Assembly: GCA_037127815.1 (NCBI GenBank)
Contig: JBAXXP010000004.1
Span: 4,647 to 68,646 of the forward strand
Length of the DNA: 64,000 nt
From: a bacterium
GTDB taxonomy: Bacteria > Patescibacteriota > Minisyncoccia > Phycocordibacterales > CAIZLB01
Direction: 5' to 3'
The position numbers and the translations under genes are program-made. The notes below the pieces were generated by a model. It did not search any database. It saw only the letters and a list, made by a program, of their open reading frames with translations, and was not told where the DNA came from. Each line of letters opens with the position of its first letter. Position 1 is the stretch's first letter. Positions 1,190 through 44,814 of this stretch are shown in pieces.

Positions 1190-3058
1190 TTGTCAAATAT
1201 CAGCTTTTACGATATAGTACAAGCACAAATGAATCTCTCAAATATCAGAAACTTTAGTATTATTGCTCACATTGATCATGGTAAATCCACGCTGGCTGAT
1301 CGTATGCTTGAAATTACAAACACTATTGAGAAGCGTAAGATGATGAATCAGGTGCTGGATAGCATGGAACTTGAGCGTGAAAAGGGAATTACAATTAAGA
1401 TGCGTCCAGTTAGAATGGCATATAAAAATCTCGCCGAGGTGGGCGATGGACAATCTAAAGGGGGTAAACAATACGAATTAAACCTAATTGACACACCAGG
1501 TCACATTGACTTCTCATACGAGGTTTCTCGTGCACTTAAGGCTGTAGAAGGATGTATCTTGCTTGTAGATGCAACACAAGGCGTACAAGCGCAAACTTTG
1601 ACAACACTTAGGCTTGCAAGAGAAATTGGTTTAACTATTATTCCAGTCTTGAGTAAAATTGATTCACCACTTGCGCGTCCTGTTGAGATAAAAGATGAAA
1701 TGTGTAAGTTGTTGGGTTGTAAGCCGGAAGATATCTTGGGAACTTCAGGAAAAACTGGAGAGGGTGTTGAGGAGTTGTTGCAGGAAATCGTTAAAAAAAT
1801 TCCACATCCTGTTGAGGAAATAGAGAATTCACAAAGTTGTCGCGCATTAGTTTTTGACTTTCAATATTCAAATCATAAGGGTGTAATTGTTTACATTAGA
1901 GTAATGGAAGGAAGTATTAAGAAGGGTGATGAATTAGTTTTCAAAATTGCTAATGAAAAATTTACAGCACTTGATGTTGGAATTTTTACACCAGATGAAG
2001 AGTCAATAGATATATTAAATGCTGGTGAAATTGGATATATCACAACTGGTATAAAACGTCCTGGTATCGCATCGGTTGGGGACACAATTACACTTTTTAG
2101 AAAACAACTTCCTGAACTTCATGGATACATGAATCCAGCTCCTGTTGTTTGGGCTTCAGTTTATCCAGAAGACGCAGATGATTTTGAAGTTCTAAAGCAA
2201 GCACTTGGAAGACTTAAGCTTTCTGATTCCGCTTTTTCCTTTGAAGAAGAATCATCAGGCTCATTAGGACGTGGATTTAGATGTGGATTTCTTGGACTAC
2301 TTCACCTTGAAATTATTACAGAGCGTCTTAAGCGCGAGTTTAGGCTAGATCTAATCATCGCAACACCTAGCATTACCTATGAAGTTACTATGGCAAATGA
2401 AAAAGTTGTCATGGTTTATTCGCCATCATTATTTCCAGAGCATGGGCAATATAAATCTGTACGTGAACCTTGGGTTATAACAAATATTATTACCCCAGAA
2501 GCTTATGTTGGTTCAATTTATCAATTGCTTTATGATCATGAGGCAGAATTGGGGGATTCAGAAACTTTTGGAGACGGAAGGACAAAACTTGTAATTAGAA
2601 TGCCACTACGTGAGCTTATGCGTAACTTTTTTGATGAACTAAAATCTGTTTCATCGGGCTATGCTTCACTTTCATATGAATTTGAGGGAATGCGCTCTGC
2701 TGAGGTTACTAGAATGGATATTTTGGTTGCAAATGAACCTGTTGAGGCATTTACCAAAGTTATTGCTGAAAGAAGAGCTGATGAAGAGGCAAATAAGACT
2801 GTAGATAGGCTTTTTAATGTGCTACCTAAGCAAATGTTCGTTGCAAAAATCCAAGCAAAAATTAACGGAAGAATTATTGCCTCACGTACATTATCTGCCA
2901 TGACAAAAGATGTTACAGGCTATTTATATGGAGGAGATATTACTAGAAAGATGAAATTGCGCGAGAAACAAAAGAAAGGAAAGAAGAAAATGAAGGCCCG
3001 TGGAGTTGTAAATATTCCTCACGATGTATTTTTGAAGATGATGAAGACGGGGGAGTAG
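1190..3058 (+). CDS. lepA: Translation elongation factor 4 (LepA)
   Basis: FSIIAHIDHGKSTLADR G1 motif and LIDTPGHIDF G3 motif. Length about 600 aa and the LepA C-terminal domain is present. The true start may be the internal Met at 1229 (MNLSNIRNFSII...). Confidence 0.9.
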   Translation: MSNISFYDIVQAQMNLSNIRNFSIIAHIDHGKSTLADRMLEITNTIEKRKMMNQVLDSMELEREKGITIKMRPVRMAYKNLAEVGDGQSKGGKQYELNLIDTPGHIDFSYEVSRALKAVEGCILLVDATQGVQAQTLTTLRLAREIGLTIIPVLSKIDSPLARPVEIKDEMCKLLGCKPEDILGTSGKTGEGVEELLQEIVKKIPHPVEEIENSQSCRALVFDFQYSNHKGVIVYIRVMEGSIKKGDELVFKIANEKFTALDVGIFTPDEESIDILNAGEIGYITTGIKRPGIASVGDTITLFRKQLPELHGYMNPAPVVWASVYPEDADDFEVLKQALGRLKLSDSAFSFEEESSGSLGRGFRCGFLGLLHLEIITERLKREFRLDLIIATPSITYEVTMANEKVVMVYSPSLFPEHGQYKSVREPWVITNIITPEAYVGSIYQLLYDHEAELGDSETFGDGRTKLVIRMPLRELMRNFFDELKSVSSGYASLSYEFEGMRSAEVTRMDILVANEPVEAFTKVIAERRADEEANKTVDRLFNVLPKQMFVAKIQAKINGRIIASRTLSAMTKDVTGYLYGGDITRKMKLREKQKKGKKKMKARGVVNIPHDVFLKMMKTGE

Positions 3059-3087
3059 TTTGTGATGGAATGTTAATTGTAGGTGAT

Positions 3088-3158
3088 TTAATCGTATCAA
3101 AAGCTGTACTTAATCGTATCAAAATGATACGATTAAGCTACTAAAATGATACGATTAA
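3088..3158. promoter_or_regulatory. Operator-like palindrome array upstream of the Fic gene
   Basis: TTAATCGTATCAAAATGATACGATTAA is a perfect 11-bp-arm inverted repeat at 3110-3136. An extra left half-site TTAATCGTATCAAAA lies at 3088-3102 and an extra right half-site AAAATGATACGATTAA at 3143-3158. The array is 30 bp upstream of the Fic start. Confidence 0.55.
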
Positions 3159-3189
3159 TTAATAATGGATTAAAATCAAATAAAACAAT

Positions 3190-4221
3190 ATGACAAACGA
3201 AATTCTTGAATTTTTGATCAAAGGTGGTGTTTTTTCAGTATCAGAGATATACGAATACATAATAACTAAAGAGGTGACGTCAGCCGTTTCTGTAAAGAGA
3301 CTTCTTTCAAAGTTGGTGGTGCAGGGTTTTTTAATCAAATCTGGAAAAGGTAGGTCTGTTAAATATCAAATATCAACTCTTGGACGCCTAAATTTGGAAA
3401 TTGATATTGAAAAATATTGTAGTATTGAGGTGGACAAAAGAGTTGGTCTTCGCGATTATAATTTTGAACTGTTTGATTCGCTACCAGAAAGTTTTTTTTC
3501 TAAGGAGGAAATTAAGGAACTAGATTCTGCAAGTAAAAAATATCATAAAAAAATTCTAAATGTTTCTGAAGTAATTCATAAAAAAGAATTAGAACGTTTC
3601 GTTATTGAACTTTCTTGGAAGTCATCCAAAATAGAAGGAAATACCTATACACTTTTGGATACAGAGAAATTACTTAAGGACGGTATCGAGGCTAAGGGAA
3701 AAACGAAAGACGAGGCTGTTATGATTATCAACCATAAAAATGCCTTTGATTTCATATATAAAAATAAAAATATGTTTAAGGAGGTTTCTGTATCAAAAAT
3801 AGAAGATGTACATAAGATTTTGATAAAGGATCTGGGTGTTACAAACAACCTAAGGTCAAACCCCGTTGGAGTTTTGGGTTCAAAGTATAAACCCTTGGAT
3901 AATAAATTTCAAATTGAGGAATCGGCAGAAAAATTATGTAAAGCTATATCTAAAATGGCTGATGTCTATAGTAAGGCGCTTTTCTTGATTATTGGGATAA
4001 GTTATATACAACCTTTTGAAGACGGCAATAAAAGAACCTCTAGGCTCATGGGGAATGCTATATTACTTACATATGGTTTGGCTCCACTATCATATAGGAT
4101 TGTTGATGAAGAAACATACAGGGAGTCGGTAATGGTTTTTTATGAGCTAAATTCCATAGCATCATTCAAGAAAATATTTTTTGAGCAATATATTTTCTCA
4201 ACAGAAAATTACTTGATTTAA
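3190..4221 (+). CDS. Fic/DOC family protein with N-terminal winged-helix-like region; class II inhibitory motif present, catalytic motif degenerate
   Basis: SKIEGNT matches the [ST]xxxE[GN] Fic inhibitory helix motif. The Fic core motif position reads QPFEDGNKRTSR instead of HPFx[DE]GNGRxxR, so His is replaced by Gln and the second Gly by Lys. Confidence 0.75.
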   Translation: MTNEILEFLIKGGVFSVSEIYEYIITKEVTSAVSVKRLLSKLVVQGFLIKSGKGRSVKYQISTLGRLNLEIDIEKYCSIEVDKRVGLRDYNFELFDSLPESFFSKEEIKELDSASKKYHKKILNVSEVIHKKELERFVIELSWKSSKIEGNTYTLLDTEKLLKDGIEAKGKTKDEAVMIINHKNAFDFIYKNKNMFKEVSVSKIEDVHKILIKDLGVTNNLRSNPVGVLGSKYKPLDNKFQIEESAEKLCKAISKMADVYSKALFLIIGISYIQPFEDGNKRTSRLMGNAILLTYGLAPLSYRIVDEETYRESVMVFYELNSIASFKKIFFEQYIFSTENYLI

Positions 4222-5800: not shown

Positions 5801-5885
5801 AGTAGGAGAATAGGAAAGTAGTGGAATGGTGATGATACGATTTTAGCTTGAATAAATTATAAATCTACCTTCACTGTTCTACGCC

Positions 5886-7713: not shown

Positions 7714-7789
7714 GCCGAGATAGCTCAGTTGGTAGAGCATTTCCCTGAAGAGGAAGGGGTCGCCGGTTCGAATCCGGCTCTCGGCACCA
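7714..7789 (+). tRNA. tRNA-Phe (anticodon GAA), CCA encoded
   Basis: GCCGAGATAGCTCAGTTGGTAGAGC ... anticodon loop CTGAAGA ... GGTTCGAATCC ... TCTCGGCACCA. The cloverleaf is canonical. Confidence 0.9.
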
Positions 7790-7805
7790 AATGTAAGGCA
7801 AGAAA

Positions 7806-7849
7806 AAATCGCCCGTCCCCAAGTGGGGCCGGGCGATTTGAGTTGTTTT
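7806..7849 (+). terminator. Rho-independent terminator after tRNA-Phe
   Basis: Stem AAATCGCCCG ... CGGGCGATTT with inner GTCCCC/GGGGC, followed by GAGTTGTTTT. Confidence 0.6.
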
Positions 7850-7871
7850 GGGGATTGAACCCGGGTGGTTG

Positions 7872-8600
7872 TTACCACCCGTGCCGTTGTTGGCGATACC
7901 CATATGGAGGGCATCCGCCATATTGTTGCGGATATGGCTGGACGACAATTACTTGCCTCCGTTGTTGCTGATAGTAGTTGCCACCCCAGGAATGCTGTGG
8001 ATACTGCTGTTGATAGCAGTTTCCACCCCAAGGTTGAAGACCACGAGGGTCTCGGTATGGGGGAGTGAAGCCGATGTTAATCAGCGACCCATTAATTTGC
8101 CAACCACCTGAACGGCGTTGTGGTGCTTCTTGCACCACCTCCTCTTGCTGTGGCGCTTGCACTTCTGCAAGCATCAGCCTGTTACCACAGTTTTCCTTCC
8201 ATGCCTGCTGAGTTTGACGATCGTACATGATCACCAACCCTACTGGCACGTTTTGAACCATGGCACGATTACCGCCCATATCATTGACCATTGGTCCGCG
8301 TGGACCAAAGACTTCCGACCATAAGATCCTAACGGATCCAGGAGTCGGTGATTTGGGTTGGTTGCCGAAGCAACTGGCGCTGACATATTGACCCACAGCA
8401 TATTGCTGGGGAGCAGGCTGTCTGCGTTGTTGTTGAGCATAACCACCTTGCGGTGGCGCCATGACGCAGGAGGTGAGTCCTGATGCCACAGCAAGACTTA
8501 CGATAGCTGCGAACATTAGCTTTGCAGCCAATGCCCTGCTGATTGGATTCATGACATTCCACACGGTGGTGGAGACGAGTATTGTGTTCATCTTTTTCAT
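7872..8600 (-). CDS. Gln/Tyr/Pro/Gly-rich putative lipoprotein in a visibly GC-rich segment
   Basis: Signal peptide with a lipobox-like LTSC. The remainder is low-complexity and Q/Y/G/P-rich (QQQYPQ, GGNYYQQQRRQ repeats). G+C is visibly higher than the flanks, which is why many overlapping alternative-frame ORFs appear here. Confidence 0.45.
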   Translation of the reverse strand: MKKMNTILVSTTVWNVMNPISRALAAKLMFAAIVSLAVASGLTSCVMAPPQGGYAQQQRRQPAPQQYAVGQYVSASCFGNQPKSPTPGSVRILWSEVFGPRGPMVNDMGGNRAMVQNVPVGLVIMYDRQTQQAWKENCGNRLMLAEVQAPQQEEVVQEAPQRRSGGWQINGSLINIGFTPPYRDPRGLQPWGGNCYQQQYPQHSWGGNYYQQQRRQVIVVQPYPQQYGGCPPYGYRQQRHGW

Positions 8601-10688: not shown

Positions 10689-11426
10689 CTAGAACTGCTT
10701 TATCTGCTTAACTTTCTCCAGTGACAAAATCAACAATATAATAGATATCCAAACAAATGAAAATGCAATAAACATATTCTGCTCATCGCTTATTACAATT
10801 ATGTAATTAAAAATAGTATGTATAACTCCCGCAACAAGTAGCCCAAGAAAGGCTAGTGAGAATTTACCAAATTTTCCCCTATAAAAACCATATCCAATAA
10901 AAATAGAGAATACCCCGGATGCTGCAACATGAAGGAGACTAGCTCCCATAAAACGAGCGGCTCCTGTCATTATGCTTGCAACCAGGTCTCCTCTAAATAA
11001 TGGAGTTAATAAAAATAAAGTATTCTCCATGGCCGCAAAACCAAGTGATACACTCATTAAGTATATAAAACTATCAATAGGGTGATTAAAAATTGTCTTA
11101 CTTCGTAATGCAATAAACCAAGCCCCGCCAAACTTAACAGCTTCCTCAATTAATGCCCAAATATAAATGGCATGTAAGTCACTGTCTTTCAAATTAAAAA
11201 GTCCAACAGATATTTTTTGAAGCGGATACACAACAAAAACTCCACACATTCCTACAACAAAGGACAAAAAGATAATATCCTTAGGTTCTTTGTGATCATT
11301 TGCTTCATGCATCCAAAACCATAACCAAAACATAGCAGGTAAAACACCTCCCACTAAGGCATAGGCAAAAACCTCTATTGCAAACAGAGGAGCTCCTTGT
11401 AATTGGTTTATTAAGTAGTTGGCCAT
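10689..11426 (-). CDS. PrsW-family intramembrane metalloprotease-like membrane protein
   Basis: Polytopic membrane protein with ALIEEAVKF (EExxK), GFAAMEN (FxxxE) and two conserved His in TM helices (LLHVAASG, VIHTIFNY), as in the PrsW/CAAX protease family. Confidence 0.55.
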   Translation of the reverse strand: MANYLINQLQGAPLFAIEVFAYALVGGVLPAMFWLWFWMHEANDHKEPKDIIFLSFVVGMCGVFVVYPLQKISVGLFNLKDSDLHAIYIWALIEEAVKFGGAWFIALRSKTIFNHPIDSFIYLMSVSLGFAAMENTLFLLTPLFRGDLVASIMTGAARFMGASLLHVAASGVFSIFIGYGFYRGKFGKFSLAFLGLLVAGVIHTIFNYIIVISDEQNMFIAFSFVWISIILLILSLEKVKQIKQF

Positions 11427-44328: not shown

Positions 44329-44814
44329 ATGAAGTACCAAACAATAGATAATAGTATGAACATTATTCAAATCGTATCAGATATTTTAGCTCAAACAGTA
44401 GAAATTCACGGCTTACCTGAGTCACGCCTAGTGGCGTACTCACCGGGTTGGGGCACAGTAGTCGTTCCTAAATTTGATGTCTTAGCGGAGGATTTGCTTA
44501 AAATCGTTCGTCTTCAAACTCTTCTCAAAATAGTTGAAAGTAATACAGGTCTTCAGTCACAAGAAAGTGTTCTTGAGGACATTGGTAATGGGGTTCATGA
44601 TGACAATCCAAGTTTTAATAATTTTTTGCGGAACGATGGCGCGATTCGCCGTAGTGTTTATGTCCAAGTTATAACTTTGGAGAGATTGATTGTTGAATTG
44701 ATTCAGTCATTTATACCAGCTGAAAGCGACAGATTTGATGTTGCGTATCGTATTAGCACGGAAAAGCAAATTATGTTCCATGAAGTCTGTTTTTTTGGAG
44801 GATCGTCTGATTGA
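44329..44814 (+). CDS. Hypothetical protein (161 aa)
   Basis: ORF only. Followed by a hairpin terminator at about 44865-44900. Confidence 0.35.
   Translation: MKYQTIDNSMNIIQIVSDILAQTVEIHGLPESRLVAYSPGWGTVVVPKFDVLAEDLLKIVRLQTLLKIVESNTGLQSQESVLEDIGNGVHDDNPSFNNFLRNDGAIRRSVYVQVITLERLIVELIQSFIPAESDRFDVAYRISTEKQIMFHEVCFFGGSSD

Follow-up and report, generated by a model that had tools for sequence, protein, structure and literature searches.

A winged-helix Fic protein with Gln at the catalytic His position and a putative self-repressing promoter-operator conserved across Patescibacteria

The locus

The subject of this study is a gene for a 343-residue protein, in which an N-terminal winged helix is joined to a Fic domain with Gln in place of the catalytic His, and the palindromic array of half-sites that lies just upstream and may serve as its autoregulatory operator. 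The gene, which starts with an ATG, is found in a 64,000-nucleotide (nt) stretch of DNA, hereafter the window, from a bacterium of the Patescibacteriota (lineage CAIZLB01; GenBank assembly GCA_037127815.1, contig JBAXXP010000004.1, positions 4,647 to 68,646 of the forward strand). The features of the locus are collected in Table 1.

Table 1. Features of the winged-helix Fic(Gln) locus in window coordinates, with the arrays of distant relatives in the coordinates of their own loci (ORF, open reading frame)
Feature	Position	Strand	Basis
Half-site F1, distal upstream accessory, TTAATCGTATCA	3088..3099	+	exact 12-mer, 22 bp from F2
-35 position, reads TGTACT (weak)	3105..3110	+	family promoters carry TTGnnn there
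Half-site F2, left arm of central palindrome	3110..3121	+	exact 12-mer
Half-site R1, right arm of central palindrome; + strand TGATACGATTAA	3125..3136	-	exact 12-mer, family sites
Predicted extended -10 element TG-A-TACGAT within R1	3125-3133	+	sigma-70 geometry
Half-site R2, proximal accessory, 22 bp downstream of R1	3147..3158	-	exact 12-mer
Coding sequence, winged-helix Fic(Gln) protein	3190..4221	+	ORF call, Pfam, homologues, AlphaFold model
Winged helix-turn-helix, N-terminal (about residues 1-68)	3190..3393	+	DSSP topology, invariant columns, profile and fold matches
Inhibitory-helix motif S145-S-K-I-E149-G-N151, class II alpha-inh	3622..3642	+	FICD alignment, family invariance
Presumed flap / target-docking loop, residues 212-238	3823..3903	+	model coil, invariant columns, fold position, FICD alignment
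Fic core motif Q274-P-F-E-D-G-N-K281-R-T-S-R285	4009..4044	+	FICD alignment, family invariance
Distant-relative array, L201	765-825
Distant-relative arrays, L205-L209 and L204	130-300 nt before each Fic gene

A winged helix joined to a Fic domain

An earlier reading of this DNA, made from its letters alone (the sequence-only reading), had recognised a Fic core, which is borne out by both profile and fold. Residues 200-292 match the Pfam Fic family PF02661 (E=1.1e-13, 52.2 bits against a cut-off of 24), which places the protein in the Fic/Fido superfamily by a curated threshold. An NCBIfam scan of the 343-residue protein returned nothing above threshold, and the Doc profile TIGR01550 scored 15 bits against a cut-off of 38.65. 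In an AlphaFold model computed from 70 homologues (predicted local distance difference test score 90.5, predicted template modelling (TM) score 0.89), the Fic part occupies about residues 130-343, and its closest solved folds according to Foldseek are FICD, C. elegans Fic-1, BT_2513, CdFic, SoFic and CbFic2, with FICD, BT_2513, CdFic and SoFic matched at E values of 6e-10 to 4e-5 and a TM-score of about 0.6 over about 250 columns. Residues 212-238 are modelled as coil with a single bridge and include residues that are invariant in the alignment of 70 homologues (R222, G227, G230, S231, P235 and D237). From their place in the fold and from what is generally known of Fic structures, we take them to be the flap.

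The N-terminal winged helix, also proposed by the sequence-only reading, is equally apparent. Residues 1-78 have the helix-helix-helix-strand-strand topology of this fold as assigned by DSSP, with a recognition helix (residues 32-44) that contains the invariant K36 and R37, and a wing in which G54 and Y59 are invariant. When a profile of these residues was compared with the PDB, CopR (2k4b) was the best match (E=1.6e-6), followed by Fur (3e-4), and AspA and BlaI/MecI were found as well, while the model of the domain resembles AspA, SqrR, MarR and PadR (Foldseek, TM 0.7-0.77). Assignment to the winged helices of the BlaI/CopY, Fur, PadR/AspA and MarR type is thus based on topology and on similarity in sequence and fold, the Pfam winged-helix matches in this part of the protein being all sub-threshold and no single subfamily cut-off being reached.

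A non-canonical but conserved active site

The Fic/Doc motif is HPFx[D/E]GN[G/K]R, in which the His is essential (PMC2686095, PMC4454073). In a phmmer search of PDB sequences, residues 131-310 of the window protein align with human FICD, and QPFEDGNKRTSR falls on HPFIDGNGRTSR (yiQPFeDGNkRTSRL over yiHPFiDGNgRTSRL). Gln274 (codon CAA, 4009-4011) lies opposite the catalytic His363 of FICD and Lys281 (AAA, 4030-4032) opposite the second Gly of GNGR, which are the two substitutions that had been read from the sequence. The protein hence departs from the pattern HxFx[D/E]GN[G/K]RxxR at the invariant His, all remaining positions fit, and Lys in eighth position is a permitted variant. A canonical His elsewhere in register, which would have undone this assignment, is ruled out since the protein has none and the alignment with FICD is unambiguous. 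Upstream in the chain, SSKIEGNT aligns with TVAIEGNT of FICD, which places SSKIEGN (residues 145-151) over the inhibitory TVAIEGN and Glu149 opposite the inhibitory Glu234, and S145-x-x-x-E149-G150 fits the class II pattern [S/T]xxxE[G/N] N-terminal to the Fic core. The inhibitory element had therefore been correctly spotted, although given as SKIEGN it was one residue short, its register starting at S145.

These features are not a peculiarity of one protein. More than 7,300 relatives were found in a large protein database, and the 120 best homologues (52-99% identity), which belong to Patescibacteria or the Candidate Phyla Radiation (CPR) wherever a label is given, all have Q-x-F-x-D-G-N-K-R-x-x-R and SSxIEG. 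Gln and Lys occur together in 245 of the 246 database relatives in which the motif is present, and I148, E149, G150, N151, Q274, F276, D278, G279, N280, K281, R282 and R285 are invariant in the 70-homologue alignment. When HMMER was run exhaustively against 1.84 billion cluster representatives (50% identity), 3,407 clusters passed E<=1e-3, of which 299 passed E<=1e-30, and among the top 150, in which the motif was read, 116 of 118 motif-bearing representatives have the Gln and Lys. At the DNA level, both residues are encoded in all 136 unique family genes from the loci that were fetched (Gln by CAG in 80 and CAA in 56, never by CAT or CAC; Lys by AAA in 82 and AAG in 54). That no His codon was found although one is a single third-position change away, while the synonymous site is free, shows that selection acts on Gln itself. 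The use of both Gln codons and the invariant motif rule out a decayed or inactive copy, and the sequence-only view of a 'possibly inactive' Fic has to be abandoned: the Gln/Lys site is the selected state of a very large family, and a conserved active site of non-canonical type. One database entry (P0169) has Trp at family-invariant Gly positions (SSQIEWN, QPFNDWNKR, VWITWTQY), which marks a lineage in which UGA encodes Gly (code 25, of the Gracilibacteria/Absconditabacteria type) and to which the source database applied an unsuitable translation table.

What the site does is a different matter. Gln for His and Lys for the second Gly argue against canonical AMP transfer. The residues that bind Mg and phosphate are strictly conserved, as is the inhibitory Glu, and this speaks for continued binding of a ligand with a phosphate group. 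Canonical AMPylation is most likely not the function of this Fic domain.

A palindrome that fills the predicted promoter

The half-site TTAATCGTATCA is present upstream of the gene in four exact copies, two on each strand, with copies in the same orientation spaced by 22 bp. All four lie inside 71 bp, and no other exact copy exists in the 64 kb of the window, for which a uniform model expects about 0.008. The two inner copies belong to a central palindrome with perfect 13-nt arms (3109-3121 and 3125-3137) around AAA. The sequence-only reading had located this palindrome but described 11-bp arms around AAAAT, giving one base of each arm to the spacer, and the additional half-sites that it mentioned are the exact 12-mers starting at 3088 and 3147. 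Half-sites with up to two mismatches show no excess in the window (13, against 8.5 +/- 3.2 in shuffles). Lone exact 9-mer cores are seen at 5833-5841 and 44371-44379, a count close to chance, and one of them sits 45 nt before a tRNA-Arg gene (5886), without TTG at -35. As both the mismatched half-sites and the lone 9-mers are at about chance level, a regulon within the window was rejected.

With one genome scanned for each GTDB species, the gene turned up in at least 589 species. The 80 loci that were kept come from Paceibacterota/Parcubacteria (Wolfe-, Vogel-, Taylor-, Nealson-, Zambryski-, Lipton-, Staskawicz- and Azambacteria) and from other lineages (Falkow-, Kerfeld-, Buchanan- and Andersenbacteria, Gracilibacteria and Minisyncoccales), and the 80 upstream regions compared are those of 79 genome loci and the window. 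The family palindrome is ATCGTATCA-N3-TGATACGAT (21 bp; a designed arm-mutant counterpart of ATCGTATCA is ATCCAATCA). Its core, GTATCA-N3-TGATAC, precedes the orthologue in 67 of the 80 regions, the other 13 having variants that differ by one or two bases. The exact 9-mer half-site was counted 179 times within 200 bp upstream of the ATG against eight times in the other 630 kb or so (about five expected by chance). A common intergenic repeat, which would have spoken against an operator, is thereby ruled out, there being no further exact copy in the window and only a chance level away from the gene.

When 130 unique oriented sites are aligned by the centre of the palindrome, the consensus reads TTG-N3-tAATCGTATCA-ata-TGATACGATtAa-N6-tAAATGATACGAa-N-ATG. 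TTG is found at -18 to -16 from the centre in 88 of these sites, which is exactly 17 bp before TACGAT, with TG at -15/-14, and the modal distance from centre to ATG is 34 nt. A third half-site (R2, at most one mismatch) lies 22 bp downstream in 122 of the 130 promoters, and a fourth 22 bp upstream in 20. With this geometry, the palindrome would fill the spacer and the -10 of a sigma-70-type promoter, its right arm being the predicted extended -10 (TGnTACGAT), so that the operator would be the promoter itself rather than merely lie upstream of it. The window promoter belongs to the minority (only about 15% of family promoters) that have the F1-type fourth half-site; its leader is longer, the ATG being 67 nt from the centre, and its -35 (TGTACT) is weak.

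The pattern of variation is informative about what recognises the palindrome. Across 172 unique sites, positions 2-10 of the arms hardly vary (95-100% conserved, although the search pattern itself prescribed 2-7), positions 11-13 vary symmetrically in both arms (p<=0.0025), and complementarity ends beyond position 13. A near-invariant core, symmetric outer variation and no pairing past position 13 point to recognition by a symmetric protein dimer and not to a selected hairpin. The array could conceivably act as a nucleic-acid structure (a terminator of the upstream lepA gene, a hairpin in the 5' untranslated region or a cruciform), the RNA of nt 3080-3195 being predicted to fold to -31.4 kcal/mol (z = -7.1 against shuffles). 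That z-score is uninformative because any perfect palindrome folds well, and much else contradicts a structural role: no T-run follows the hairpin, a terminator scan was empty at the array, Rfam gave no match, the element accompanies the Fic gene irrespective of the upstream context, the core of the stem is almost constant in sequence instead of co-varying, and the consensus -35/-10 geometry puts the start of transcription downstream of the palindrome. We find a structural role highly improbable, and a lepA terminator or a known RNA can be dismissed on the lack of a T-run and of an Rfam match and on the element tracking the Fic gene instead of lepA.

The element in metagenomes and in distant relatives

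A metagenome scan for the exact 21-mer gave at least 119 loci, and 89 of the 120 palindromes among the matches listed directly precede a family gene. About ten further ones are too near a contig end to tell, and about 20 have no family gene behind them. Arrays without the gene, in which the palindrome is accompanied by the third half-site, were noted in L116 (centre at 11075), L126 (2648), L133 (366), L199 (1382), L100 (1903), L105 (298) and L183 (479). In L105 only a C-terminal fragment of the family gene remains, and in L183 only ATGATTTGA, followed by groES in the same direction, 116 nt from the palindrome centre. Such orphans suggest that the gene has been deleted repeatedly while its operator stayed in place. 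An alternative genetic code was rejected as the explanation, since translation with code 25 yielded no extra genes.

No gene family apart from this one recurs beside the element. Other genes are sometimes found behind arrays: a MNT/HEPN-like pair (L186, about 1548), a HicB/HicA-like pair (L114, about 322, listed with L189, about 8430), an uncharacterised 174-residue protein (L174, about 516) and a 277-residue DinD/Bro-N-like protein (L081 and L107). They may represent cassette replacement or extra targets. L100 also encodes (2045-3028) a RhuM/Doc-like protein with HPFNDGNKR, in which the His is kept and the Lys is present, 142 nt from the orphan palindrome and on the flank opposite to that of the third half-site, which is probably a coincidence of two Fic/Doc-type genes.

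More distant relatives (424-465 residues, 30-45% identity), with QxFxD[V/G/C]NKR, SSx[L/M]EG and an N-terminal winged helix, are in part encoded on plasmids of cultured Proteobacteria (Sulfitobacter, Mesorhizobium, Roseibium, Sagittula, Polaromonas and Comamonas) and also occur in metagenomes. Seven of the eight full-length ones examined have, just before their start codon, an array of their own with three to six half-sites of 9-12 nt that differ between them, namely GTATTGTAACAT (four copies), T[AT][CT]GCGCAA (six copies), TTGCGC[CG]TA, AATCAGCTC, AATCTTGTCA and ATCGTTTC (three copies); the eighth (L200) has no such array. The Sulfitobacter half-site ATCGTTTC resembles the CPR half-site ATCGTATC. 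That operators differ by protein lineage, yet always lie at the relative's own gene, is as predicted for a cis-encoded autoregulator.

These findings bear on whether the palindrome might instead be the site of another, trans-acting regulator of Patescibacteria, with the Fic gene as one target in its regulon. The palindromes without a family gene, some of them before the MNT/HEPN-like pair, the HicAB-like pair or groES, could be taken in this sense. Such a regulon sits badly, however, with 89 of 120 listed palindromes being at the family gene, with half-sites at chance level in the 630 kb of flanks, with a 64-kb window devoid of further sites, with orphans (L105 and L183) that keep remnants of a deleted family gene and with distant relatives whose differing arrays each precede their own gene, the pattern of a cis-encoded binder. 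A trans-acting regulator is in our opinion improbable. Autorepression by the protein's own winged helix, proposed by the sequence-only reading as an autoregulatory operator, is by comparison well supported, in as much as the palindrome precedes orthologues across Patescibacteria, is rare elsewhere and is replaced by other arrays in relatives; on this comparative evidence, the gene very probably represses itself.

Genomic neighbourhood

No neighbour is conserved among 81 loci, none being common to more than nine, and no conserved small ORF or antitoxin partner was found at family loci. The commonest neighbours are AbiEi and AbiEii (9 and 7 of the 81 loci). The adjacency to lepA, which had been singled out as unusual, is of no consequence, because lepA is not a recurrent neighbour in this set, and a functional link to it is ruled out. 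The ORF upstream of lepA (437-1105) resembles a NYN/LabA-type domain protein, and NYN/LabA-like proteins occur at -1 or -2 of the Fic gene in three of the 81 loci, too few for synteny. The plasmid-borne relatives adjoin integrase, SIR2, restriction and methylase genes. A phage origin was discarded, since a phage collection holds only distant Fic proteins (25-31% identity). Elsewhere in the window (7714-8600), a stretch that directly follows a tRNA-Phe gene (7714-7789) has a guanine-cytosine content of 0.40-0.41 against 0.34-0.36. It contains a minus-strand ORF of 242 residues (7872-8600) rich in Gln, Pro and Tyr, and possible readings are an insertion at the tRNA or a low-complexity secreted protein.

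A model for the locus

In the model that we favour, and consider reasonably probable as a whole, a self-repressing promoter-operator is combined with a Fic(Gln) domain that acts as a module binding a phosphate-bearing ligand or a target, and not as a canonical AMPylase. The locus would be a self-contained, one-gene regulatory unit, in which (i) a dimer of the winged helix would bind ATCGTATCA-N3-TGATACGAT within the gene's own sigma-70-type promoter, with accessory half-sites 22 bp (two helical turns) off on one or both sides, (ii) occupancy of the operator would block RNA polymerase and hence lead to self-repression, which would hold the protein dose low, and (iii) the Fic domain would be a sensor or a stoichiometric effector, whose state is coupled to operator occupancy. 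In every member examined, this class II domain retains the inhibitory helix with its Glu, the flap, the Asp that binds Mg and the Asn/Arg/Arg that bind phosphate, with Gln in place of the general base His and a Doc-like Lys in place of the second anion-hole Gly. More tentatively (we would give it rather less than even chances), the Gln/Lys site could define a new, non-transferase class of Fic proteins, either a switch gated by a nucleotide or phospho-ligand or an NTPase in which Gln positions a water as in small GTPases, and form the sensing half of a one-component regulator.

Several points weigh against this model. A strict-criteria promoter scan of the window found no site at the palindrome, so that promoter assignment there leans on the family consensus. 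The palindromes that lack a family gene indicate that the element can persist, or be used, without it. In a search for co-variation of operator position 11 (A or T) with residues of the winged helix, mutual information was dominated by high-entropy columns. Binding to the operator, repression and the ligand or target of the Fic domain are predictions of the comparative analysis. The conservation of D278, N280, K281, R282, R285 and E149 is equally expected of an enzyme, the Gln clade of Fic/Doc may retain catalysis as argued by Khater and Mohanty (PMC4454073), and a regulator of itself alone would need an output.

An alternative leaves the operator model unaffected and differs only in the output. 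The Gln/Lys Fic domain could be catalytically active by some non-canonical route (phosphotransfer of the Doc type, hydrolysis or de-modification with the inhibitory Glu as base, or an NTPase reaction with Gln positioning a water), and the gene would then be a fused toxin-antitoxin-like or abortive-infection module whose toxicity is checked by the internal inhibitory helix and by autorepression. The invariance of the phosphate- and Mg-binding residues and of the inhibitory Glu agrees with this, as does Lys at the second-Gly position, a signature of Doc (PMC2686095, PMC4454073). The gene is also solitary, in variable contexts and occasionally lost, with AbiEi/AbiEii as commonest neighbours and plasmid relatives beside integrases, SIR2, restriction and methylase genes, a lifestyle that fits a toxin-antitoxin-like or defence-like system; PADLOC gives weak matches to its SoFic and PDC-S04 models, and SoFic is a single-gene Fic defence (PMC12249575). 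However, the general base is missing in every member and no solved or characterised Fic enzyme is known to function without His, the enrichment in defence-gene neighbours is modest (as raw counts), and the PADLOC matches probably reflect no more than a shared Fic fold, the SoFic match (E=6.2e-15) being partial and covering profile positions 14-218 of 361. An enzyme of this kind is a possibility to which we give a minority share of our belief. Computation cannot separate an uncharacterised reaction from ligand or target binding, and we prefer the binding module.

Relation to known Fic systems

Fusions of Fic to helix-turn-helix (HTH) domains, and the idea that the HTH serves autoregulation, date back to Kinch et al. 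2009 (PMC2686095). A close parallel is CccR of Yersinia pseudotuberculosis, a Fic-HTH protein that represses its own promoter via inverted repeats at -35/-10, as demonstrated by electrophoretic mobility shift assays, footprinting and reporters (PMC9755527). Like CccR, the window protein has Fic and HTH in one chain and inverted repeats over its own -35/-10 (here a promoter assigned by consensus geometry). In CccR, by contrast, Fic is N-terminal and the HTH C-terminal, the His is canonical, FtsZ is AMPylated, the repeats are of 10 bp and 26 bp apart, and the protein is a secreted effector of the type VI secretion system. CbFic2 of Coxiella burnetii, another Fic-HTH protein, links its DNA binding to a monomer/dimer, AMPylase/deAMPylase switch of the Fic domain and differs in its canonical His, its C-terminal HTH, DNA binding reported as non-specific and a host histone target (PMC10628234).

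As for the active site, 45 proteins with Qx[F|Y]x[D|E][G|V]NKR were grouped in silico as clade D2 of Fic/Doc and suggested not to be dead (Khater and Mohanty 2015, PMC4454073). D2 likewise has Gln for His followed by NKR, is exclusively bacterial and was left without a function; its motif is matched by QPFEDGNKR of the window protein and, including the [G|V] alternative, by QPFIDVNKR and QAFADVNKR of the longer relatives, a likeness by motif. D2 was, however, described as 'usually single-domain', placed with Doc and given no operator, whereas the window protein starts with a winged helix, contains the class II inhibitory helix, the flap and the final Arg (xxR), and has FICD as nearest solved fold. 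It shares the fold of FICD/HYPE, CdFic, SoFic and BT_2513 (Foldseek E about 6e-10, TM 0.61), with the inhibitory motif N-terminal to the core and a loop nearly identical to that of class II AMPylases (xPFxDGNxRTSRL), and departs from FICD by its Gln for His, Lys for the second Gly, a winged helix instead of tetratricopeptide repeats and no transmembrane segment. With Doc of phage P1 (Phd-Doc) it has in common the Lys of NKR and an autoregulated locus (predicted in our case), but Doc keeps the His, consists of one small domain that lacks both flap and inhibitory helix, and is neutralised and co-regulated by a separate antitoxin, Phd. With a TIGR01550 score below cut-off, no His, and no conserved neighbour or small ORF, the window protein is not a Doc, the Lys being all they share. 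BepC of Bartonella (PMC7842960) also has a non-canonical Fic motif, of another variant, in a secreted effector of an animal pathogen without a DNA-binding domain.

HTH-Fic autorepressors and a Gln clade of Fic/Doc were hence already known. In the literature that was searched, there is no description of the CPR family or its operator, nor an experiment on a Gln-variant Fic, and what the present analysis adds is the Gln/Lys pair as a selected family state, the operator that coincides with the predicted promoter phylum-wide, and the operators that distant relatives have of their own.

Significance

Fic enzymology rests on an invariant His, and the finding that Gln and a Doc-like Lys are kept under clear purifying selection in hundreds of 50%-identity clusters, amounting to thousands of sequences, along with all residues for phosphate and metal and the inhibitory Glu, points to an uncharacterised activity or binding mode. 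The putative 21-bp operator with its predicted extended -10 is preserved nearly base for base across CPR classes, in front of proteins that are only about 50-55% identical. Cis-regulatory elements that extend over a whole phylum are rare, and this one belongs to organisms for which experimental genetics hardly exists. It offers (i) a ready candidate protein-DNA pair, (ii) possibly a portable regulated promoter for Patescibacteria and (iii), with the lineage-specific operators of the distant relatives, a natural series for studying how winged-helix specificity evolves. If the tentative reading of a new Fic class is right, a one-component regulator with a near-invariant promoter-operator would operate throughout Patescibacteria, with a diverged form on plasmids of Proteobacteria and Bacteroidota.

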